A stretch of DNA of 64,000 nt from Escherichia coli (GCF_001677475.2 NZ_CP015229.1), one strand, 5' to 3'. Positions 27,199-62,066 are shown, numbered from the stretch's first letter. The notes: generated by a model not told the origin, from the sequence alone. Made by a program: numbers and translations.

Positions 27199-28494
27199 AT
27201 GACACTCACGCTCAATAGACAACTTCTTACCTCACGCCAGATTCTGGTGGCCTTTAGCGGCGGGCTTGACTCCACCGTTCTGCTGCATCAGTTGGTGCAG
27301 TGGCGGACGGAAAATCCGGGTGTCGCTCTGCGCGCTATTCATGTGCATCACGGTTTAAGTGCCAATGCCGATGCCTGGGTTACGCATTGCGAAAACGTCT
27401 GCCAACAGTGGCAGGTGCCGCTGGTGGTCGAACGCGTACAACTTGCGCAAGAGGGGCTGGGGATTGAGGCCCAGGCGCGGCAGGCGCGTTATCAGGCATT
27501 TGCCCGCACCTTGTTGCCCGGTGAAGTGCTGGTCACCGCGCAACATCTCGACGATCAATGTGAAACTTTTCTGCTGGCGCTAAAACGCGGTAGCGGCCCT
27601 GCCGGGCTTTCGGCTATGGCGGAAGTTTCGGAGTTTGCCGGAACACGGCTTATCCGCCCGTTGCTTGCCCGCACGCGGGGGGAACTGGAGCAGTGGGCAT
27701 TGGCGCATGGTTTACGCTGGATTGAAGACGAAAGTAATCAGGACGACTCATACGATCGTAACTTTCTGCGCCTGCGCGTAGTGCCGTTATTGCAGCAGCG
27801 TTGGCCGCATTTTGCCGAAACAACGGCCCGCAGCGCCGCACTTTGTGCTGAACAAGAGAGCCTGCTGGATGAACTGCTGGCAGATGATTTAGCACACTGT
27901 CAATCGCCGCAGGGGACGCTGCAGATTGCGCCAATGCTGGCGATGAGTGATGCCCGTCGCGCGGCGATTATTCGCCGCTGGCTGGCAGGGCAGAATGCAC
28001 CGATGCCTTCCCGCGACGCGCTGGTGCGGATCTGGAAGGAAGTGGCGCTGGCGCGAGAAGATGCCTCCCCCTGTTTACGCCTAGGCGCGTTTGAAATCCG
28101 CCGCTATCAGTCGCAACTGTGGTGGATTAAATCCGTCACCGGGCAAAGCGAAACCATTGTGCCGTGGCAGACGTGGCTACAACCGCTGGAATTACCGGCG
28201 GGGCTGGGAAGTGTACAGCTTACTGCGGGAGGCGATATTCGCCCTCCGCGTGCAGACGAAGCGATCAGCGTGCGTTTCAAAGCGCCAGGATTGCTGCATA
28301 TTGTCGGGCGCAACGGCGGACGTAAGCTGAAGAAAATCTGGCAAGAGTTAGGCGTTCCGCCGTGGCTACGTGACACCACGCCACTGCTGTTTTATGGCGA
28401 AACGCTGATTGCGGCGGCAGGGGTATTTGTGACGCAAGAAGGTGTGGCAGAAGATGAGAATGGCGTAAGTTTTGTCTGGCAGAGAAACGCTTAG
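27199..28494 (+). CDS. tilS: tRNA(Ile)-lysidine synthetase
   Basis: 431-aa [35 protein letters not shown] (SGGxDS PP-loop motif). Confidence 0.95.
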
Positions 28495-30877: not shown

Positions 30878-31711
30878 TCACTGAGTCAGCCCAACAAAGC
30901 GACCCGCCTTGATATAAATCCCTGGCTTCAGGTGCCCAACATACTGTAACTGCGTTTCTGGCTTAAACGCAGAGACATCGCCAGTACGCATATGCATCAG
31001 ATCGGCAGGGCTAATCCAGCCCGATTGCGCCAGCGTAAGCGGATGCCCGGCTTTGGCAAATGCATCCGTGACAAATTCCGAACAAAACCACGACTTTTTG
31101 TCTCCTTCGCCCACACTGCTTAACTGCGCTTTCGCCAGGCCGCTGACGCACTGTTGGCGAAAATCCTCGGAGAACGGATTCAGTGAGCACATCTGGCGAG
31201 TCACCATAAATGGAATAAATTCGACAATGCCGCGATAGTTATAACCGCTATCTTTGATTTTATTGGCAAACGCGGTGATATCTGTGGCTTGTTGCGGGGT
31301 AAGATCCGGAACTCGTAAGACGAAAAGCTTATCACTATGCTTCATCGCTTTTTTAAGGGAAACAATCTGGACACCATCCCCTGTCGCTTCTGCAACGTTA
31401 TTATCACCCAGATAGATTGCAACGTGACTCACAGAGGAAGTGTTGAAGACGCGGATTCCAAATGAGGTTACCCCAAGGCTTGAGGAGAACAGCAAATCGC
31501 CGGGTTTGAGATCAGGTACCGTTATTTCTTTTATTGATTGTTCGGTGAAAGAGCTTTGATGCTGGAATTTGACAGCCCATGTTTTTGCCTCGACATCTAC
31601 CGCTGTGGCAGAGGAGTCTGGCTGGCTGATATCAACGGTACACGCCGAAAGTAAAAGAAAGCTGGGGAGAAGCAGGCGGTAGTACGCCTTTGGTTTATCC
31701 ATTTTATACAA
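30878..31711 (-). CDS. yaeF: Probable lipoprotein peptidase YaeF (NlpC/P60-like)
   Basis: 277-aa ORF; likely start 3 codons in at MDKPKAYYRLLLPSFLLLSACTVD (lipobox LSAC). Confidence 0.85.
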   Translation of the reverse strand: MYKMDKPKAYYRLLLPSFLLLSACTVDISQPDSSATAVDVEAKTWAVKFQHQSSFTEQSIKEITVPDLKPGDLLFSSSLGVTSFGIRVFNTSSVSHVAIYLGDNNVAEATGDGVQIVSLKKAMKHSDKLFVLRVPDLTPQQATDITAFANKIKDSGYNYRGIVEFIPFMVTRQMCSLNPFSEDFRQQCVSGLAKAQLSSVGEGDKKSWFCSEFVTDAFAKAGHPLTLAQSGWISPADLMHMRTGDVSAFKPETQLQYVGHLKPGIYIKAGRFVGLTQ

Positions 31712-31754
31712 TCCATGTAAAAAAGGGCCCTGAAATTCAGGACCCTTTCTGGCA

Positions 31755-33473
31755 TCAGCCTTTAATCTGTTTCACCAGATAATCGACGATGTCACCAGTC
31801 TTAATTAACTGTTTCTCGCCGTTACGACGATATTTATATTCGATATCGTCGTTGTCAAGGTTACGGTCGCCCAGCACAATCGTGTGCGGAATACCGATCA
31901 GTTCCATATCAGCAAACATCACGCCCGGACGCTCTTTGCGGTCATCCAGCAGCACTTCGATACCCTGCGCGCGCAGTTCGCTGTACAGTTTCTCGGCCAG
32001 TTCCTGTACGCGGAAGGATTTGTGCATGTTCATCGGCAGAATCGCCACCTGGAACGGCGCGATAGCGTCAGGCCATACGATGCCGCGTTCGTCGTAGTTC
32101 TGCTCGATCGCCGCAGCTACTACACGCGTTACCCCGATACCGTAGCAACCCATCGTCAGGATTTGATTACGGCCATCTTCACCCTGTACGGAGGCTTTCA
32201 GTGCTTCAGAGTACTTAGTACCCAGCTGGAAGATGTGACCGACTTCGATACCACGTTTGATCAGCAGCGTACCCTGGCCATCCGGGCTTGGATCGCCAGC
32301 CACCACGTTACGGATATCCGCAACTTCCGGGGTAGCGACATCGCGATCCCAGTTGATACCGAAGTAGTGTTTACCATCGATGTTAGCACCAGCAGCGAAA
32401 TCACTCATCGTCGCAACGGTACGGTCAATCACCACCGGAATCGGCATGTTTACCGGACCCAGTGAACCCGGACCGGCTTTAACCACGGCACGAATTTCTT
32501 CTTCGGTCGCGAAAGTCAGCGGGCTTGCAACCTGCGGCAGTTTTTCTGCTTTAACTTCGTTCAGTTCGTGGTCACCGCGCACCAGCAGCGCAACCAGCGG
32601 GAAGCTACTGCCTTCAACCGCTTTAACCAGCAGAGTCTTAACCGTTTTCTCAATCGGCAGATTGAACTGTTCAACCAGTTCAGCGATGGTTTTCGCGTTC
32701 GGCGTATCAACCAGCGTCATTTCCTGGGTAGCAGCAGCGCGCGGCTCTTTCGGCGCGATAGCTTCTGCCAGTTCAATGTTCGCTGCATAGTCAGAGGTGT
32801 CGGAGAAGACCACATCGTCTTCACCGCTCTGCGCCAGCACCTGGAATTCGTGAGAGGCGCTGCCGCCGATAGAACCGGTGTCGGCCTGTACGGCGCGGAA
32901 ATCCAGCCCCATGCGGCTGAAGATTTTGCTGTAGGCCGCATACATTGCATCGTAGGTTTCCTGCAGGGATTCCTGAGAAGTATGGAAAGAGTAAGCATCT
33001 TTCATCAGGAATTCGCGGGAACGCATGACGCCGAAACGCGGACGCACTTCGTCGCGGAACTTGGTCTGGATCTGATAGAAGTTCAACGGCAGCTGTTTGT
33101 AAGAGCTAAGCTCGTTACGAATCAGGTCAGTGATAACTTCTTCGTGAGTTGGGCCGAGTACGAACGGACGCTCGCCACGGTCAACAAAACGCAGCAGTTC
33201 CGGACCGTACTGTTCCCAACGACCACTCTCTTGCCACAAATCGGCTGGCTGAACCACCGGCATCGACACCTCGATCGCACCGGCGTTGTTCATCTCTTCA
33301 CGCACGATGTTTTCGACTTTTTTCAGAACGCGCACGCCGGTCGGCAGCCAGGTATATAACCCGGAGGCCAGCTTGCGGATCATCCCGGCGCGCAGCATCA
33401 GCTGATGGCTGATCACCTCGGCGTCGGCAGGTGTCTCCTTGAGAGTGGAGAGCAGGTATTGGCTAGTACGCAT
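31755..33473 (-). CDS. proS: Prolyl-tRNA synthetase
   Basis: ORF-track entry 31755-33527 trimmed to ATG complement at 33471-33473: [44 protein letters not shown]... Confidence 0.95.
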
Positions 33474-37529: not shown

Positions 37530-38102
37530 GTGGCGAAGAGCGTACCCGCAATTTTTCTTGACCGTGATGGCACCATTAATGTCGATCACGGCTATGTCCA
37601 TGAGATCGACAATTTTGAATTTATCGACGGTGTTATTGACGCCATGCGCGAGCTAAAAAAAATGGGCTTTGCGCTGGTGGTAGTAACCAACCAGTCTGGC
37701 ATTGCTCGCGGTAAATTTACTGAAGCGCAGTTTGAAACGCTGACCGAGTGGATGGACTGGTCGCTGGCGGACCGAGATGTCGATCTGGATGGCATCTATT
37801 ATTGCCCGCATCATCCGCAGGGTAGTGTTGAAGAGTTTCGCCAGGTCTGCGACTGCCGCAAACCACATCCGGGGATGCTTTTGTCGGCACGCGATTATTT
37901 GCATATTGATATGGCCGCTTCTTATATGGTGGGCGATAAATTAGAAGATATGCTGGCAGCGGCTGCGGCGAACGTGGGAACAAAAGTGCTGGTGCGTACG
38001 GGTAAACCTGTTACGCCTGAAGCAGAAAATGCAGCGGATTGGGTGTTAAATAGCCTGGCAGACCTGCCGCAAGCGATAAAAAAGCAGCAAAAACCGGCGT
38101 AA
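37530..38102 (+). CDS. gmhB: D-glycero-beta-D-manno-heptose-1,7-bisphosphate 7-phosphatase
   Basis: 190-aa ORF, GTG start, (M)[34 protein letters not shown] (HAD DxDGT motif). Confidence 0.9.
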
Positions 38103-38124
38103 TGATTAAAAGATGAGCGGTTGA

Positions 38125-38180
38125 AATAAAAATGCATTTTTCCGCTTGTCTTCCTGAGACGACTCCCTATAATGCGCCTC
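38125..38180 (+). promoter_or_regulatory. rRNA operon P1 promoter with AT-rich UP element
   Basis: -35 ttgtct at 38147-38152, 16-nt spacer, -10 tataat at 38169-38174, GC-rich discriminator gcgcc; upstream gaaataaaaatgcattttt. Confidence 0.7.
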
Positions 38181-38255
38181 CATCGACACGGCGGATGTGA
38201 ATCACTTCACACAAGCAGTCGGTTCGGTTGAAGAGAAAAATCCTGAGATTCAGGG

Positions 38256-38283
38256 TTGACTCTGAAAGAGGAAAGCGTAATAT
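38256..38283 (+). promoter_or_regulatory. rRNA operon P2 promoter
   Basis: -35 ttgact at 38256-38261, 16-nt spacer, -10 taatat at 38278-38283. Confidence 0.6.
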
Positions 38284-38323
38284 ACGCCACCTCGCGACAG
38301 TGAGCTGAAAGCCGCGTCGCAAC

Positions 38324-38336
38324 TGCTCTTTAACAA
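38324..38336 (+). promoter_or_regulatory. rrn leader boxA antitermination element
   Basis: tgctctttaacaa matches rrn boxA consensus. Confidence 0.75.
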
Positions 38337-38467
38337 TTTATCAGACAATCTGTGTGGGCACTCGAAGATACGGATTCTTAACGTCGCAAGACGAAAAATG
38401 AATACCAAGTCTCAAGAGTGAACACGTAATTCATTACGAAGTTTAATTCTTTGAGCATCAAACTTTT

Positions 38468-40009
<1,542 letters not shown>

Positions 40010-40077
40010 CCTTAAAGAACTGTGCTTTGCAGTGCTCACACAGATTGTCTGATGAAAATGAGCAGTAAAACCTCTAC

Positions 40078-40154
<77 letters not shown>

Positions 40155-40196
40155 AATTTGCACCGCAAATTTGAAGAGGTTTTAACTACATGTTAT

Positions 40197-40272
40197 GGGG
40201 CTATAGCTCAGCTGGGAGAGCGCCTGCTTTGCACGCAGGAGGTCTGCGGTTCGATCCCGCATAGCTCCACCA
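40197..40272 (+). tRNA. alaV: tRNA-Ala (anticodon TGC)
   Basis: ggggctatagctcagctgggagagcgcctgctttgcacgcaggaggtctgcggttcgatcccgcatagctccacca, 76 nt. Confidence 0.95.
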
Positions 40273-40455
40273 TCTCTGTAGTGATTAAATAAAAAATACT
40301 TCAGAGTGTACCTGCAAAGGTTCACTGCGAAGTTTTGCTCTTTAAAAATCTGGATCAAGCTGAAAATTGAAACACTGAACAACGAAAGTTGTTCGTGAGT
40401 CTCTCAAATTTTCGCAACACGATGATGCATCGAAAGAAACATCTTCGGGTTGTGA

Positions 40456-43358
<2,903 letters not shown>

Positions 43359-43456
43359 ACAACGCCGAAGATGTTTTGGCGGATAGAGAGAAGATTTTCA
43401 GCCTGATACAGATTAAATCGACAGGTCAGAACATGACGTGTTGATAAAACAGAATT

Positions 43457-43576
43457 TGCCTGGCGGCCGTAGCGCGGTGGTCCCACCTGACCCCATGCCG
43501 AACTCAGAAGTGAAACGCCGTAGCGCCGATGGTAGTGTGGGGTCTCCCCATGCGAGAGTAGGGAACTGCCAGGCAT
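43457..43576 (+). rRNA. rrfH: 5S ribosomal RNA
   Basis: tgcctggcggccgtagcgcggtggtcccacctgacccc...gggaactgccaggcat, 120 nt. Confidence 0.95.
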
Positions 43577-43628
43577 CAAATTAAGCAGTAAGCCGGTCAT
43601 AAAACCGGTGGTTGTAAAAGAATTCGGT

Positions 43629-43705
43629 GGAGCGGTAGTTCAGTCGGTTAGAATACCTGCCTGTCACGCAGGGGGTCGCGGGTTCGAGTCCCGTCCGTTC
43701 CGCCA
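43629..43705 (+). tRNA. aspU: tRNA-Asp (anticodon GTC), distal tRNA of the rrn operon
   Basis: ggagcggtagttcagtcggttagaatacctgcctgtcacgcagggggtcgcgggttcgagtcccgtccgttccgcca, 77 nt. Confidence 0.95.
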
Positions 43706-43716
43706 CTTATTAAGAA

Positions 43717-48947: not shown

Positions 48948-49706
<759 letters not shown>

Positions 49707-51841: not shown

Positions 51842-51918
51842 AACACAACGCGGAGCGGTAGTTCAGTCGGTTAGAATACCTGCCTGTCACGCAGGGGGTC
51901 GCGGGTTCGAGTCCCGTC
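51842..51918 (+). tRNA. aspV: tRNA-Asp (anticodon GTC)
   Basis: Identical 77-nt sequence to aspU; located after dnaQ as in K-12. Confidence 0.95.
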
Positions 51919-51925
51919 CGTTCCG

Positions 51926-51966
51926 CCAATATTCAGAAAGCCCGAATCAGTAATGATTCGGGCTTT
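51926..51966 (+). terminator. aspV terminator
   Basis: gaaagcccgaatc-agtaat-gattcgggctttc followed by gtcgtttt. Confidence 0.65.
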
Positions 51967-56502: not shown

Positions 56503-57329
56503 GCGTCGCTTCCTTCAGCGGTGTTAAAGGTACAGGTGGACAAATCCAGCAGGCTGATATCGCCGTGACCGGTGAGCCACACCCTCTGACCCAGCGCCTG
56601 TACCAGAGTCTCTCCCGGCCCGTCCTGCCAGACCGTTTTCCGGCACAGACGCAGGGAGTCGGCAGCCTTTTCAGAGCCGCTGTAGCGGGAAAACAGCCAG
56701 GCACTGTGTGTGTCGCCATTATTCAGTGTGACGTTGACGGGTTTCCAGATCAAATCGGTCAGATGCGCAGGCCGCGGCGATTTTAGCGAACAGATTTGTG
56801 AAAACGGCAACCAGATATATACTCCGCCCGCGATGAGTTCGAGTACCGGACCGGTACGGGAGTCGCTGTCGCTAATCCAGTCAAATGCGCCGCCATTCCA
56901 CTGTCCTGCAGTATCTGTTATGGCCTCAAGTGCGCGGCTGCGGTGGGCGTCAGCTTCCTGCGCTTCACCACGGGCGTTACAGGCGAGGGCGGTCAGCAGA
57001 TCCTCCATCCAGGCGGGCGGCGGGAGAATAAAATCGGGCCGCTGTTCTCCCTGAAAGCAGGCGTGGCGGTATATCTCACAGCGGATCAGCTCGCCAAATA
57101 CCTGCGCTTCGCGGGTATAATTTGCGTCCATCCGGGCGCATAGCTGGATCTGTTGCAGTGCCCGCGACCAGTCGCCTGCCACGCACAATAACTGAAACAG
57201 GCTGTGGCGGCGGGAGGCCTGCGCCGGGGGCATCCTGACCTGCTGCTCTGCCATCTGAATGCCCTCCGCCACGGAATAATCCCGCAGCAGCGCCGACAGG
57301 GTAGCCGGTAGCTCGTTATTGTTTGTCAT
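56499..57329 (-). CDS. tagJ: T6SS accessory protein, TagJ/ImpE-like (tentative)
   Basis: 276-aa ORF in operon between fha-like gene and tssE; size and overall pattern resemble ImpE-family proteins; assignment by recollection, not alignment. Confidence 0.5.
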   Translation of the reverse strand: MTNNNELPATLSALLRDYSVAEGIQMAEQQVRMPPAQASRRHSLFQLLCVAGDWSRALQQIQLCARMDANYTREAQVFGELIRCEIYRHACFQGEQRPDFILPPPAWMEDLLTALACNARGEAQEADAHRSRALEAITDTAGQWNGGAFDWISDSDSRTGPVLELIAGGVYIWLPFSQICSLKSPRPAHLTDLIWKPVNVTLNNGDTHSAWLFSRYSGSEKAADSLRLCRKTVWQDGPGETLVQALGQRVWLTGHGDISLLDLSTCTFNTAEGSDA

Positions 57330-58230
57330 GAGATATCTCTCCGTGTTGTGCCGGGTTTATCCGATAATGGCTGTCAATGCCAATGATGCGATGCTCTTTG
57401 CGTGTCAGGTCGGGTAGAACGGTGTTATGCGCTGTTTCCGGTGCGCATTCCGGGGATAGCAGGTGCAGGATATCTGGGGGCGTCTTTTCGGCAGGCCAGG
57501 CGGTTTCCCCTTCGCCGGTGGCGTCCAGGACATCGAGAATAGCGTCAATGCTTAACCCGCCAGTGACCATATCCTGCAATGTCTCGGCTTCAGTGACCAG
57601 ATCACGCAATGAATCCAGATCCTGTGAGGAGGGCTCTTCGTTAAAGGGAAAAGGATCAGCATGGCGATGAAGATCTTGTTCAGGAGATAACAACGCCTCG
57701 CGGTATTCCTGATAAAGTCGAGTCAGGGCATTTTCTTTTTTAGCATCTTCTCCAGTGGAGGAGGCTCCATGAACAGGAATGATATCGAATGGATTTTGTG
57801 ATGTCAGATGCTGCTGCCTGAACCAATCCAGATCCAGATATTCGGTTATTGTTTCCGACATGGTGGCAGTCTGCGATGTCGTTTTTACTGCGCTCAGGTC
57901 CGGAGATGATGGATTGCCGTGCACAAGGCACCATGAAGATAACCCCCATTCTATCAGGTCGCCTTCATTCAGACGCATACGGTGATGAGGTTCCACAATC
58001 TGGTCGTTTACCGTACAGCAATATTCGGTAGACTGATTGATAATCCACCATGCTTCTTCGTGGCGGGTCAGACTGAGGGCAATCTTTACATCATCATTCA
58101 CCTCAAAAACAGGAATCCAGGGTGAGGTAACGGTGAAGATAATTTGGGTTCCTTCAGTCGCGTAAATTGTGTTATCGGCGATCCCGTGCGCCTGTATTTT
58201 TTGGAGTCCCCACGTAATATTTGGTTTCAT
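57316..58230 (-). CDS. T6SS-associated protein with N-terminal FHA-like domain (TagH/Fha-like, tentative)
   Basis: 304-aa ORF; first gene of the minus-strand operon; N-terminal roughly 100 aa end in ...TVNDQIVEPHHRMRLNEGDLIEWG, resembling the C-terminal strand pattern of FHA domains; acidic Ser/Thr-rich C-terminal half. Confidence 0.45.
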   Translation of the reverse strand: MKPNITWGLQKIQAHGIADNTIYATEGTQIIFTVTSPWIPVFEVNDDVKIALSLTRHEEAWWIINQSTEYCCTVNDQIVEPHHRMRLNEGDLIEWGLSSWCLVHGNPSSPDLSAVKTTSQTATMSETITEYLDLDWFRQQHLTSQNPFDIIPVHGASSTGEDAKKENALTRLYQEYREALLSPEQDLHRHADPFPFNEEPSSQDLDSLRDLVTEAETLQDMVTGGLSIDAILDVLDATGEGETAWPAEKTPPDILHLLSPECAPETAHNTVLPDLTRKEHRIIGIDSHYRINPAQHGEISHDKQ

Positions 58231-58562
58231 TGTGTATCACTGTGTAGAATGTTTCTTTCAAAAGAATAAGTTTTCTAAATTTTTAGATAAGCAATGCTGA
58301 TTAATTTACTTTATCAATATAAGTTTTCGCGGAAATATATAGTGGCGATTTTCAATTTAATATATTCATGGTATGTATGAAATTGGCTTGCTCTATTGAA
58401 TATCACCATGAAAAAGATACTACCTGCTATATTACATTGTGTTCTGTGATATGCATCATTGTTTCATTCGGCCTTTTTGATAATTCTATTAATTAGAAGT
58501 TTTAATCGATACAGTTATGTTTATGTATCATTTATATGTTCTTACATCATTAGGTGTAACAG
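58231..58562. promoter_or_regulatory. AT-rich divergent promoter/control region between the two T6SS operons
   Basis: 332-nt non-coding region, visibly AT-rich with multiple A/T tracts, between divergently transcribed fha-like gene and clpV. Confidence 0.5.
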
Positions 58563-61196
58563 ATGGACACTCCTGTTTCGCGCAGTGCACTGTATGGAAA
58601 GCTAACCAAATCTTTGTTTAGATCTTTGGAATCTGCGACGACGTTCTGTAAATTACGCGCTAATCCTTATGTCGAACTGACGCATTGGTTGCATCAGTTA
58701 ATACAACAACCAGAGAATGACATTCACAATGTGCTTCGACATTATCAAATAACATCTGCTGATGTTGAGAAGGCGTTAATTCAGCAATTGAATATATTGC
58801 CTGCCGGAGCGAGTGTAATTAACGATTTTTCCCATCATATCGATCTTTCTGTTGAAAAAGCCTGGATGTTGGCAAGTATCCGCTTTGGCGATCAAAAAAT
58901 TCGTAGTGGATGGTTATTACTTGCCTGGTTAACCACGCCAGAATTGTGTCGGGTGTTAAAAAATATTTGTGCGCCATTGGCAGAGCTGCCGGTAGATGAA
59001 CTATTAGATATTCTTCCGTCTTTAATCACTTCATCTCCTGAATTAACAGAAATGCCTTATGACTGCTCGGATTTAAATTCTGCAGTACCGGGGGAAGCTA
59101 GCCAGGTCTTTGCCGGCGAATCAACCGGAAGCAAATCCGCGCTGGCGAAATACTGCCAGGACATGACTGCGCTGGCCCGTGAAGGCAATATCGATCCGGT
59201 CACCGGTCGCGAACACGAGATCCGTACTATGACGGATATTCTGCTGCGCCGTCGCCAGAACAACCCGCTACTGACCGGCGAAGCGGGAGTCGGGAAAACG
59301 GCAGTGGTGGAAGGATTCGCGCTGGCGATTGCCGGGGGGGAAGTACCGCCTTCACTGCGTAACGTGCGGTTGCTGTCACTGGATGTTGGAGCGCTGCTGG
59401 CTGGGGCGTCCATGAAGGGTGAATTTGAATCCCGCCTGAAAGCGTTGCTAGAAGAGGCCGCGCGCTCGCCGCAGCCGGTAATCCTTTTTGTTGATGAAGT
59501 TCACACGCTGGTGGGCGCTGGTGGTACATCCGGTACGGGGGATGCTGCCAACCTGCTGAAACCGGCGCTGGCGCGTGGCACCCTGCGCACCATCGGCGCA
59601 ACCACCTGGAGCGAGTACAAACGCCATATCGAAAAGGATCCGGCGCTGACTCGGCGTTTTCAGGTATTGCAGGTTGCTGAGCCGGAAGAGGTTGCGGCTG
59701 TTGAGATGGTACGCGGGTTAGTCACCACGCTTGAAAAACACCATGACGTGCTGATCCTTGATGAGGCCGTGCGCGCCGCCGTACAGCTTTCTCACCGTTA
59801 CATTCCGGCCCGGCAACTACCGGATAAGGCCATCAGCCTGCTGGATACGGCGGCGGCCCGTGTAGCGCTGTCGCTGCATACCCCGCCTGCGAGAGTCCAG
59901 TATCTGCGCCAGCAGCTCAACGCTGCCGAACTGGAGCAGGTGTTGTTATTAAAGCAGGAAAAAATGGGTATCCGCTCGGAGCGGGGCGATGTACTGACGG
60001 CGCGGATTATATCGCTTAATGCCGATCTTTCTGACACCGAAGCGCGGTGGCAGCAGGAACTGGAGTTGGTTCGCAGTTTACAGGAGCAACGCGGCGCAGC
60101 GCCTGGCGAGCGCGACGAAATCACTCTACAACAGGCAGAAACGGCATTAAGAGGCTGGCAGGGTGAAAACCCCGTCGTGTACCCGGAAGTCAGTGCAACC
60201 GTGGTGGCAGAGATTGTCTCCGACTGGACCGGTATTCCCGCCGGACGGATGGTGAAAGATGAAGCCAGTCAGATACTGGAATTGCCCACCCGTTTGGCGC
60301 AGCGTGTTACCGGGCAGATGGATGCGTTGGCGCAGATTGGCGAGCGTATCCAGACCGCGCGGGCGGGTTTAGGTGACCCGCGTAAGCCTGTGGGTGTCTT
60401 TTTGCTGGCCGGGCCGTCCGGAGTAGGCAAGACTGAGACCGCGCTGGCACTGGTAGAAGCAATCTATGGCGGTGAACAGAATCTGATCACCATCAACATG
60501 AGCGAGTATCAGGAGTCTCACACAGTCTCCACTCTGAAAGGCGCGCCGCCCGGCTACGTCGGTTATGGCGAAGGCGGCGTGTTGACGGAAGCGGTACGCC
60601 GCCATCCCTGGAGCGTGGTATTGCTGGATGAAATTGAAAAAGCCCATCACGACGTCCACGAGCTGTTCTTCCAGGTGTTTGATAAGGGGGCGATGGAAGA
60701 TGGCGAAGGTGTCCACATCGATTTCAAAAATACCACGCTGTTGTTGACGACTAACGCGGGGGCGGAACTTATCAGCCAGCTCTGTGAGGATCCGGCGCTG
60801 ATGCCCGATTCGGCAGGGTTAAAAGAGGCGTTAATGCCGGAGTTACGTAAACACTTCCCGGCGGCTTTCCTGGGGCGTGTGACGGTTATTCCTTATTTAC
60901 CGCTGGATGAGACCGCGCGTGGTGTTATTGCCCGCCTGCATCTTGGCAGATTGATGGCTCGGATGGCGGAGCAGCATGGCGTTTCACTGGTGTATGGCGA
61001 TGAACTGATTACGCATATTGTGTCGCGCTGCCCGATGCACGAGACCGGCGCTCGTTTGCTCATCGGCTATATCGAACAACATATCCTCCCACAACTGTCC
61101 CGTTATTGGTTGCAGGCGATGACAGAGAAAACGGCCATCACGCAAATCCGCATTCGTGTTGATGAGGATGAACAGATTATTTTTGAAACGGATTAA
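58563..61196 (+). CDS. clpV: T6SS AAA+ ATPase ClpV (TssH)
   Basis: 877-aa ORF with two AAA+ modules: Walker A GEAGVGKTAV and GPSGVGKTETA, Clp N-domain-like N-terminus. Confidence 0.92.
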   Translation: MDTPVSRSALYGKLTKSLFRSLESATTFCKLRANPYVELTHWLHQLIQQPENDIHNVLRHYQITSADVEKALIQQLNILPAGASVINDFSHHIDLSVEKAWMLASIRFGDQKIRSGWLLLAWLTTPELCRVLKNICAPLAELPVDELLDILPSLITSSPELTEMPYDCSDLNSAVPGEASQVFAGESTGSKSALAKYCQDMTALAREGNIDPVTGREHEIRTMTDILLRRRQNNPLLTGEAGVGKTAVVEGFALAIAGGEVPPSLRNVRLLSLDVGALLAGASMKGEFESRLKALLEEAARSPQPVILFVDEVHTLVGAGGTSGTGDAANLLKPALARGTLRTIGATTWSEYKRHIEKDPALTRRFQVLQVAEPEEVAAVEMVRGLVTTLEKHHDVLILDEAVRAAVQLSHRYIPARQLPDKAISLLDTAAARVALSLHTPPARVQYLRQQLNAAELEQVLLLKQEKMGIRSERGDVLTARIISLNADLSDTEARWQQELELVRSLQEQRGAAPGERDEITLQQAETALRGWQGENPVVYPEVSATVVAEIVSDWTGIPAGRMVKDEASQILELPTRLAQRVTGQMDALAQIGERIQTARAGLGDPRKPVGVFLLAGPSGVGKTETALALVEAIYGGEQNLITINMSEYQESHTVSTLKGAPPGYVGYGEGGVLTEAVRRHPWSVVLLDEIEKAHHDVHELFFQVFDKGAMEDGEGVHIDFKNTTLLLTTNAGAELISQLCEDPALMPDSAGLKEALMPELRKHFPAAFLGRVTVIPYLPLDETARGVIARLHLGRLMARMAEQHGVSLVYGDELITHIVSRCPMHETGARLLIGYIEQHILPQLSRYWLQAMTEKTAITQIRIRVDEDEQIIFETD

Positions 61197-61386: not shown

Positions 61387-61773
61387 ATGCACTGGTCATG
61401 GTTGATTGCTCATGAAATCGTTCAGGCAAAAAACGTCCCGGCGATGGAGGGGGTGGATATTGAGTGGGTTCACCCGACTGAGCAAGCCTCGCTTGAAGCG
61501 GCGCAGGCTATGGTTACGGCCTATGGTATTAATAATCTGAATGTCGCGCCTGCACTGAGCTCCAACCATACACGCGGTACTGCGATAGATATGAATATCA
61601 GTTGGAGCGGAACATTAACAATTGCGGGGAGCAATGGTCAGAATGTTGCAATTAATACACTACCTCGAACCGGAATGAATGCCCAGCTTCAGGCGGTAGG
61701 TCTGGGTTACGGCGTCAGAAAATTTGTTGGCGGCAATACAGATATACCTCACTGGTCAATTGATGGACATTAA
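61387..61773 (+). CDS. Candidate T6SS effector: small zinc metallopeptidase of the VanY/peptidase M15 (LAS) type, predicted peptidoglycan peptidase
   Basis: 128-aa ORF, no signal peptide, no Cys; exact VanY-type motif S59-N-H61-T-R-G64-T-A66-I-D68 (SxHxxGxAxD) at nt 61561-61590 and C-terminal His in IPHWSIDGH; located between clpV and tssB. Confidence 0.5.
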   Translation: MHWSWLIAHEIVQAKNVPAMEGVDIEWVHPTEQASLEAAQAMVTAYGINNLNVAPALSSNHTRGTAIDMNISWSGTLTIAGSNGQNVAINTLPRTGMNAQLQAVGLGYGVRKFVGGNTDIPHWSIDGH

Positions 61774-61775
61774 GT

Positions 61776-62066
61776 ATGACATTTCGTTATCCGATGTTGT
61801 TGACATTCCTGTTAATGATGTTCGCTTTCTGTGTTCAGGGGGAACCGCCTTTACCACAGGATGTGCAGCATTTTCTGAGTAATGCGGAAATGTGCCAGCA
61901 TCTTGCTGGTGAATGGGACAGTTCTTTACCAAAGAAGGATAAAAGAGACATCGAAAAGGGGGTTGATACCTGGTGTCCTCCGGCGAAGAAATCACTCCCT
62001 GTGCTGCGGGAAAAGTACAAAGAAAACAAAGAGATTATAAAAATACTCTCTGCGTATGATTTTTAA
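61776..62066 (+). CDS. Candidate periplasmic immunity protein for the upstream peptidase
   Basis: 96-aa ORF starting 2 nt after the peptidase stop; N-terminal Sec-type signal peptide MTFRYPMLLTFLLMMFAFCVQG; two Cys in mature part; Lys/Glu-rich C-terminus. Confidence 0.45.
   Translation: MTFRYPMLLTFLLMMFAFCVQGEPPLPQDVQHFLSNAEMCQHLAGEWDSSLPKKDKRDIEKGVDTWCPPAKKSLPVLREKYKENKEIIKILSAYDF

Follow-up and report, generated by a model that had tools for sequence, protein, structure and literature searches.

The AT-rich spacer between tagK and tssH/clpV in an SPI-6-type T6SS island of Escherichia coli: a probable H-NS-silenced divergent regulatory region

The spacer that separates the divergent tagK and tssH/clpV operons in the 64,000-nt stretch of Escherichia coli DNA analyzed here (the window) is probably the shared control region, with promoters in both directions, of an SPI-6-type T6SS that a small share of E. 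coli strains have inserted at aspV; it would be silenced by H-NS, and on its clpV side it carries a candidate module consisting of a promoter, a dyad, and a hairpin. In the mechanism we propose, the 73% AT spacer within an island of 54% GC would be a preferred loading site for H-NS, as its orthology suggests, and H-NS would coat the spacer together with the adjacent gene starts and shut off both operons. The spacer would be opened by signals that weaken H-NS binding, which in Salmonella are the intracellular environment and c-di-GMP when its level is raised by bile or arginine; iron limitation acts there through Fur. In the constrained half of the spacer, an ATAyTAAC element, a -35-like TTACAT, a 16-nt spacer, a -10-like CATCAT, and a dyad (TGAT-N4-ATCA) are held in a fixed, gap-free register, and the dyad might serve a specific repressor as its operator. 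The start of clpV transcription is predicted near 58466, which would yield a 5' UTR of ~97 nt, the last 18 nt of which could form a weak hairpin over the clpV RBS.

The island and the base composition of the spacer

The spacer extends exactly from the start of tagK to the start of tssH/clpV (Table 1) and contains 101 A, 40 C, 51 G, and 140 T, or 72.6% AT. Compared to 50.4% GC in the 1 kb to its left, 50.0% in the 1 kb to its right, and 51.9% in the whole window, its GC content of 27.4% was far lower, and calculation in 100-nt steps gave 25-31% GC within the spacer versus 44-47% at its edges. Both results bore out the first-pass annotation, which had described a 332-nt spacer far more AT-rich than its flanks and had placed it exactly. 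Only 0.04% of the 332-nt segments in the 64 kb were as AT-rich, and every one of them overlapped the spacer. The runner-up segment, at 31% GC, was located inside gloB (48948-49703, minus strand), where a 200-nt stretch (49000-49200) of 27-30% GC formed the second most AT-rich spot in the window. A foreign origin can be dismissed for this stretch, as 5424 of 5426 complete E. coli genomes have it at ≥95% identity. The spacer had also been described as full of A/T tracts, with 58271-58320 quoted as an example. Such tracts are present, but the number of A/T runs of at least four (8) was no higher than composition predicts (7.8 ± 2.3 in shuffles), and the number of TpA steps (41) equaled that of shuffles as well (42.5 ± 4.2). 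Because both counts match the shuffles, the impression of A/T tracts adds nothing beyond base composition.

Judged from gene content and order, the island is an SPI-6-type T6SS at aspV, as indicated by the TagK equivalog match, a ClpV identity of 83%, and the Salmonella gene order. The genes to the left of the spacer are arranged as tssA-tssG-tssF-tssE-tagJ-tagK, and those to the right as tssH, two small genes, tssB, tssC, tae4, tai4, hcp, tssJ, tssK, tssL, tlde1, tssM, tagF, and vgrG. The left gene had been called fha-like in the first-pass annotation; a weak, sub-threshold FHA match to Pfam does exist (i-E 0.0024, residues 54-96), but the gene is tagK and not a canonical fha. The cluster was carried by 119-122 of 5426 complete E. 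coli genomes (~2.2%), with one spacer copy per genome in 119 of them, and the window was 99.7% identical to E. coli strains 2012C-4221 and MEI003.

Overall, the island has 53.8% GC versus 51.5% for the core part of the window, and low GC was confined to patches. In the E. coli island L001, other low-GC patches (27-34% GC) were located at 27651-28050, 31651-32900, 37801-38850, and 41051-42300, which fall at the tai4-hcp junction, around tlde1, and among the distal accessory genes. For SPI-6 of Salmonella, the literature lists eight separate H-NS regions. At the 5' part of clpV (58563-59100), the first 500-600 nt have 34-46% GC here and 42-43% across Escherichia relatives. Only in the Escherichia lineage does the AT-rich zone therefore reach into clpV, the same segment having 50-56% GC in Salmonella, Enterobacter, and Citrobacter.

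Two further parts of the window deserve description. Between clpV and tssB lie two small genes (61387-62066). The second encodes 96 aa (61776-62066) and gave only a weak hit to a thioredoxin-like CxxC family (StoA_CxxC, E 1e-6), well short of the cut-off; a 96-aa gene is likewise called at this place in the Salmonella, C. koseri, and L015 loci. Upstream of aspV by 8 kb, an rRNA operon (38400-43710) contains tRNA-Ile, tRNA-Ala, and a first tRNA-Asp, so that the dkgB-dnaQ segment is bracketed by two tRNA-Asp genes.

Table 1. Coordinates of the spacer, its flanking genes, and the elements placed within it (positions in the window)
Feature	Position	Strand	Basis or remark
AT-rich spacer between divergent operons, tagK to tssH/clpV	58231-58562	.	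332 nt, 27.4% GC; putative H-NS binding platform
tagK, first gene of the tagK-tagJ-tssE-tssF-tssG-tssA operon	57316-58230	-	NCBIfam NF033418 T6SS_TagK equivalog, 553 bits; MEI003 annotation
tssH/clpV, first gene of the rightward operon	58563-61196	+	TIGR03345 VI_ClpV1, 1215 bits
tRNA-Asp (aspV), island insertion site	51852-51928	+	tssA 131 nt away
Palindrome TCTAAATTTTTAGA	58274-58287	.	Within the tagK-proximal half, which evolves fast; confined to the E. coli lineage
Best sigma70-like candidate toward tagK, TTTCCG-16-TAAAGT with TG	58308-58335	-	Unconserved
Upstream element ATAyTAAC (ATACTACC in the window)	58417-58424	+	Ungapped 17-sequence alignment; about -49 to -42 relative to the predicted start
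-35-like hexamer TTACAT (TTGnnn in other genera)	58432-58437	+	Conservation
Most conserved block TGATATGCATCATTGTTT, including the dyad TGAT-N4-ATCA (58447-58458)	58447-58464	+	Candidate operator
-10-like hexamer CATCAT (TATCAT in 11 of 12 non-Escherichia orthologs)	58454-58459	+	Conservation
Fur-box-like best match GATAATTCTATTAATTAGA	58479-58497	+	13/19; equaled by 36% of shuffles; conserved only in Escherichia
PhoP-box-like direct repeat TGTTTATGTATCATTTA	58518-58534	+	10/12; equaled by 18% of shuffles; Escherichia only
Candidate RNA hairpin UUACAUC-AUUA-GGUGUAA over the clpV SD (AGGUG, 58552-58556)	58542-58559	+	RNAalifold

Orthologous spacers and the clpV-side promoter module

Orthologous spacers were collected from 16 further loci, which included Escherichia relatives, Enterobacter, two Citrobacter species, Salmonella, and other assemblies. 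A TagK scan of the genome collection gave five loci, and the other orthologs were gathered protein by protein. All 17 orthologous spacers kept the divergent arrangement, a length of 330-423 nt, and 23-30% GC, with flanking genes of 42-56% GC. At the distant locus L011, where TagK was 30% identical, the spacer was 331 nt long with 27% GC, and the block was absent.

Across genera, most of the spacer could not be aligned, with the clpV-proximal part as the exception: 75 nt around the block aligned without gaps in all 17 sequences, and the non-Escherichia consensus of this stretch was ATaTTAac-N7-TTGnnn-N16-TATCAT-TGTTT. Pairwise diversity among the nine Escherichia sequences was 0.149 in the tagK-proximal half (58231-58400) and 0.069 in the clpV-proximal half (58401-58562), compared to 0.138 in tagK and 0.063 and 0.098 in two segments of clpV. 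As read from these alignments, the spacer is a two-part region in which the clpV-proximal ~160 nt are constrained like coding DNA and the tagK-proximal ~170 nt evolve freely.

In 18 of 20 spacers, 116-120 nt separated the block from the clpV ATG downstream of it (116 nt here); the exceptions were C. koseri, in which a downstream insertion brought the distance to 149 nt, and the distant locus, from which the block was absent. When a sigma70-like matrix was applied, the block position ranked first or second toward clpV in Salmonella and C. koseri (both TTGCTA-16-TATCAT) and in L012 (TTGATA-16-TATCAT). The corresponding TTACAT-16-CATCAT of the window keeps A-11 and T-7, yet with only 6 of 12 consensus matches its hexamers are weak. 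With TTG kept, A-11 and T-7 invariant, the spacing fixed, and an AT-rich element upstream, the conservation pattern would fit a sigma70 promoter, and ATAyTAAC is a candidate UP-element-like or activator site. A sigma54 core (GG-N10-GC) was absent from 58201-58600, where the best match to TGGCAC-N5-TTGCW was 7/11.

Toward tagK, the best sigma70-like candidate was rejected as a promoter because three Escherichia relatives lack its -10, and the comparison of orthologous spacers placed no conserved promoter on this side. A strict sigma70 scan of 58100-58700 gave no promoter. Of the long 5' UTRs that the first-pass annotation had implied for both operons, only that of clpV has a predicted length (~97 nt), since the clpV-side promoter alone was placed by comparison.

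The promoter differed between Escherichia and the other genera. All nine Escherichia sequences shared a G to A substitution in the -35 and a T to C substitution at -12. Since both substitutions hit the best-conserved promoter positions, the Escherichia clpV promoter is probably intrinsically weaker. Furthermore, a GATC (Dam site) was located inside the block in 12 of 12 non-Escherichia orthologs, whereas Escherichia has GATA and the window spacer contains zero GATC. Because the block GATC was lost, the Escherichia promoter could not be Dam-sensitive. A second GATC was found 34 nt downstream in four non-Escherichia orthologs (set: L005-L009, L012-L015, L043, L048-L050).

Decay of the cluster was observed in some carriers, with examples among L051 (E. 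coli LCP30S3_I5), L046 (VE-T9), L047 (CP52E), and L015. One strain had IS3 inserted right at the clpV start and IS66 in tagK, and other carriers had a tssH frameshift or a tagJ internal stop. In one metagenomic relative, clpV was split, the invariant A at -11 had become G, and the hairpin loop was deleted. At L013 (1737-3662), the conserved clpV start (MEAPVSRSALYGKL) was followed by an Rhs/YD-repeat gene call in place of ClpV; this rearranged locus adjoins an integrase and a SymE-like toxin gene, and its spacer and block were kept.

H-NS, candidate regulators, and the leader RNA

Binding of H-NS has been measured at the orthologous spacer of Salmonella. By ChIP-exo in S. Typhimurium 14028S, H-NS_Region_036 (311285-312094, 810 bp) was identified, which the authors attribute to the region holding the tagKJ-tssEFGA and tssH promoters, and its signal decreased from 0.998 outside to 0.117 inside macrophages (log2FC -3.22, a ~9-fold drop) (PMC11770342). 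The Salmonella clpV promoter was shifted by H-NS in EMSA, deletion of hns increased the expression of clpV, hcp1, tae4, and vgrG, and c-di-GMP, which was induced by bile salts or L-arginine, blocked H-NS binding at the clpV promoter (PMC10657408). Since the Salmonella tagK/tssH spacer is H-NS-bound, the reading of the E. coli spacer as an H-NS target and divergent promoter is supported, and by orthology it would serve as an H-NS-bound site of silencing and derepression. The first-pass annotation had proposed both functions from the appearance of the sequence; ChIP-exo and EMSA on the ortholog speak for its proposal. Matches to the high-affinity H-NS motif tCGATAAATT were at chance level: the spacer contained four 8/10 matches, and 71% of shuffles reached 8/10. 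A literature search found nothing on the E. coli version of this tagK/tssH cluster.

The spacer might be purely a silencing platform, in which only AT content matters and the block is a core promoter that has no dedicated operator or regulator. We regard this as possible, though well short of probable. It would account for the distant locus, where AT-richness and length are kept without the block, and for the outcome of the motif scans, in which only one of 16 consensus motifs, a post-hoc case, beat shuffles. The block was also present only once in the island: a second copy, which would suggest a cluster-wide operator, was sought across the 42-kb island, and the block proved unique. When metagenomes were scanned with the block pattern, 3 of the 29 matches were in clpV contexts and the rest were chance. 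However, conservation extends into promoter-spacer positions that are not read by RNA polymerase, where the bases TC.GTGATCTG are invariant or nearly so in 12 non-Escherichia orthologs. In addition, Fur has been reported to repress Salmonella clpV by binding directly to this promoter, according to the citations of Wang 2019 in PMC10657408 and PMC10482370.

The dyad would occupy a repressor position, because it overlaps the promoter spacer and the -10. An alternative in which it is the operator of a known regulator, namely Fur (possibly with Dam, as in EAEC sci1), a member of the CRP/FNR family, or KdgR, appears unlikely. Judged against dinucleotide shuffles, consensus scans of the spacer for Fur, CRP, FNR, H-NS, PhoP, ArcA, and IHF were all at chance level; the best ArcA match (11/15), for instance, was reached by 56% of shuffles. 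Scans for Lrp, Fis, LexA, RcsB, OmpR, PmrA, and ArgR, which were run on the window only, gave undistinctive best matches. For Fur, the binding cited for Salmonella is in favor, and the block GATC of the non-Escherichia orthologs recalls the sci1 switch, yet the block itself scored only 10-12/19, the best Fur-like site was located off the block and was no better than shuffles (Table 1), and the window spacer has no GATC. For CRP and FNR, the best matches to the consensus sequences TGTGA-N6-TCACA (read here as TGTGA-N6-TCAtt) and TTGAT-N4-ATCAA, respectively, were both 8/10 at 58445-58460, but these scores were reached by 23% and 56% of shuffles, and the outer half-site bases differed between genera. 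For KdgR, whose 21-mer consensus is AAATGAAACAnTGTTTCATTT (PMC5559549), a score of 16/20 at 58449-58469 was the best in the whole window and was reached by only 0.2% of 4000 shuffles; the motif was, however, picked post hoc, after the sequence had been seen, and the score was 12-15/20 in other genera. It falls there because the conserved core stops before the TTTCA arm, and KdgR as regulator of the dyad is a lead only.

A third alternative places the constraint on the clpV-proximal half at the RNA level, with the ~97-nt leader controlling expression after transcription, for example by sequestering the SD in a hairpin, sensing temperature, or being targeted by an sRNA. This alternative would explain the steady distance of the block from the clpV ATG across genera. 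It also draws on the candidate SD-covering 7-bp hairpin in the last 18 nt of the leader, whose 3' arm takes in the GG of the SD and for which the comparative evidence was suggestive. Among twelve distinct orthologs, several of them closely related, 97.6% of cells were paired compared to 32-54% in slid controls, and two compensatory pairs with G.U intermediates gave a covariation score that was reached by 9 of 500 shuffles. The variants formed a series linked by G.U pairs (ACAUC/GGUGU, ACGUC/GGUGU, AUGUC/GGUGU, AUGUC/GGCGU, and AUGUC/GGCAU). Nevertheless, the covariation term from RNAalifold was only -0.21 kcal/mol, short leader fragments with the hairpin folded at only -3.6 to -8 kcal/mol, and the hairpin was not the minimum-energy fold in C. 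amalonaticus and was broken in Enterobacter kpr-6. The whole leader folded no better than shuffles (z -0.88), and an Rfam scan of the spacer at E up to 10 gave only sub-threshold eukaryotic snoRNA/miRNA noise. Taken together, we consider an RNA-level origin of the constraint improbable.

Searches of the spacer for other elements found no terminators, and repeats or mobile elements were limited to short chance repeats. Two small ORFs (58368-58496, 42 aa; 58405-58446, 13 aa) were rejected, their starts or frames being lost within Escherichia and Salmonella having an in-frame stop.

Finally, it is very unlikely that the low GC is a neutral by-product, arising in a long intergenic stretch of an acquired island through AT-biased mutation under relaxed selection. 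In favor of this reading, A/T tracts and TpA steps are exactly as composition predicts, and the left half evolves at least as fast as the neighboring genes. Against it, spacers of the same extreme AT content and of similar length are retained in at least four genera and in a distant relative, between flanks of 42-56% GC; the right half is under purifying selection; and the ortholog is a measured H-NS target with regulated occupancy.

The H-NS-silenced divergent regulatory region thus remains our preferred reading. An extension of it would make the clpV-proximal 160 nt a dedicated, conserved SPI-6-type switch beyond H-NS, in which a sequence-specific regulator would bind the dyad over the -10, the Dam site outside Escherichia would make an epigenetic on/off switch possible, Escherichia would have been rewired by the -35/-10 down-mutations and the loss of GATC, and the SD hairpin would add a translational layer. 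We consider this extension doubtful.

Known T6SS systems and significance

The closest known counterpart is the Salmonella SPI-6 spacer between tagK (sciF) and tssH (sciG, clpV). The two systems are alike in their proteins (TagK 56% identity, 55-57% among the Salmonella relatives; ClpV 83%), in the divergent arrangement and the gene order, which includes tssB-tssC-tae4-tai4-hcp, and in the aspV location (PMC2907695). Their spacers are similar in length (368 nt in Salmonella versus 332 nt here) and GC content (26% versus 27%), and share TGAT-N4-ATCATTGTTT at 116-120 nt upstream of the clpV ATG as well as the SD hairpin. They differ in that little alignment is possible beyond the block and the final ~45 nt, that Escherichia has TTACAT/CATCAT without the block GATC whereas Salmonella has TTGCTA/TATCAT with GATC, and that the first 600 nt of clpV have 42-43% GC in Escherichia but 56% in Salmonella.

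Two further T6SS loci were compared. EAEC sci1, reportedly described by Brunet and colleagues in 2011, is said to have a sigma70 T6SS promoter that is repressed by Fur and has a GATC overlapping the operator, which together form a Fur/Dam switch. Fur repression of the EAEC T6SS is also listed in PMC10482370. The non-Escherichia orthologs of the spacer resemble sci1 in carrying a GATC in the promoter core; in contrast, sci1 belongs to another, non-homologous T6SS family, and the window spacer has neither a GATC nor a Fur box above chance. The OI-7 T6SS of EHEC O157:H7, located at aspV, is silent in culture and derepressed in an hns mutant, where hcp-2 increased 60-fold (PMC5363993), and its lineage is SPI-19-like (PMC2907695). 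OI-7 is like the island of the window in that both encode a T6SS in E. coli and are located next to one and the same tRNA gene, but it represents another T6SS lineage with another gene order and is without the tagK/tssH divergent pair.

In light of these comparisons, the region is real and largely expected, and is not a new kind of element; its function in E. coli is what we infer by orthology. Competing gut bacteria are killed by the SPI-6-type T6SS, which normally stays silent. Knowing what opens it would therefore explain when this weapon is used. In E. coli, the spacer corresponds to the one region of SPI-6 whose H-NS occupancy is known to change during infection. To this, our comparison adds a two-part anatomy, promoter and operator coordinates, a probable weakening of the promoter together with the loss of the Dam site in Escherichia, and a candidate SD hairpin. 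Such a weakening could be a reason for T6SS activity to differ between Salmonella and the E. coli carriers.
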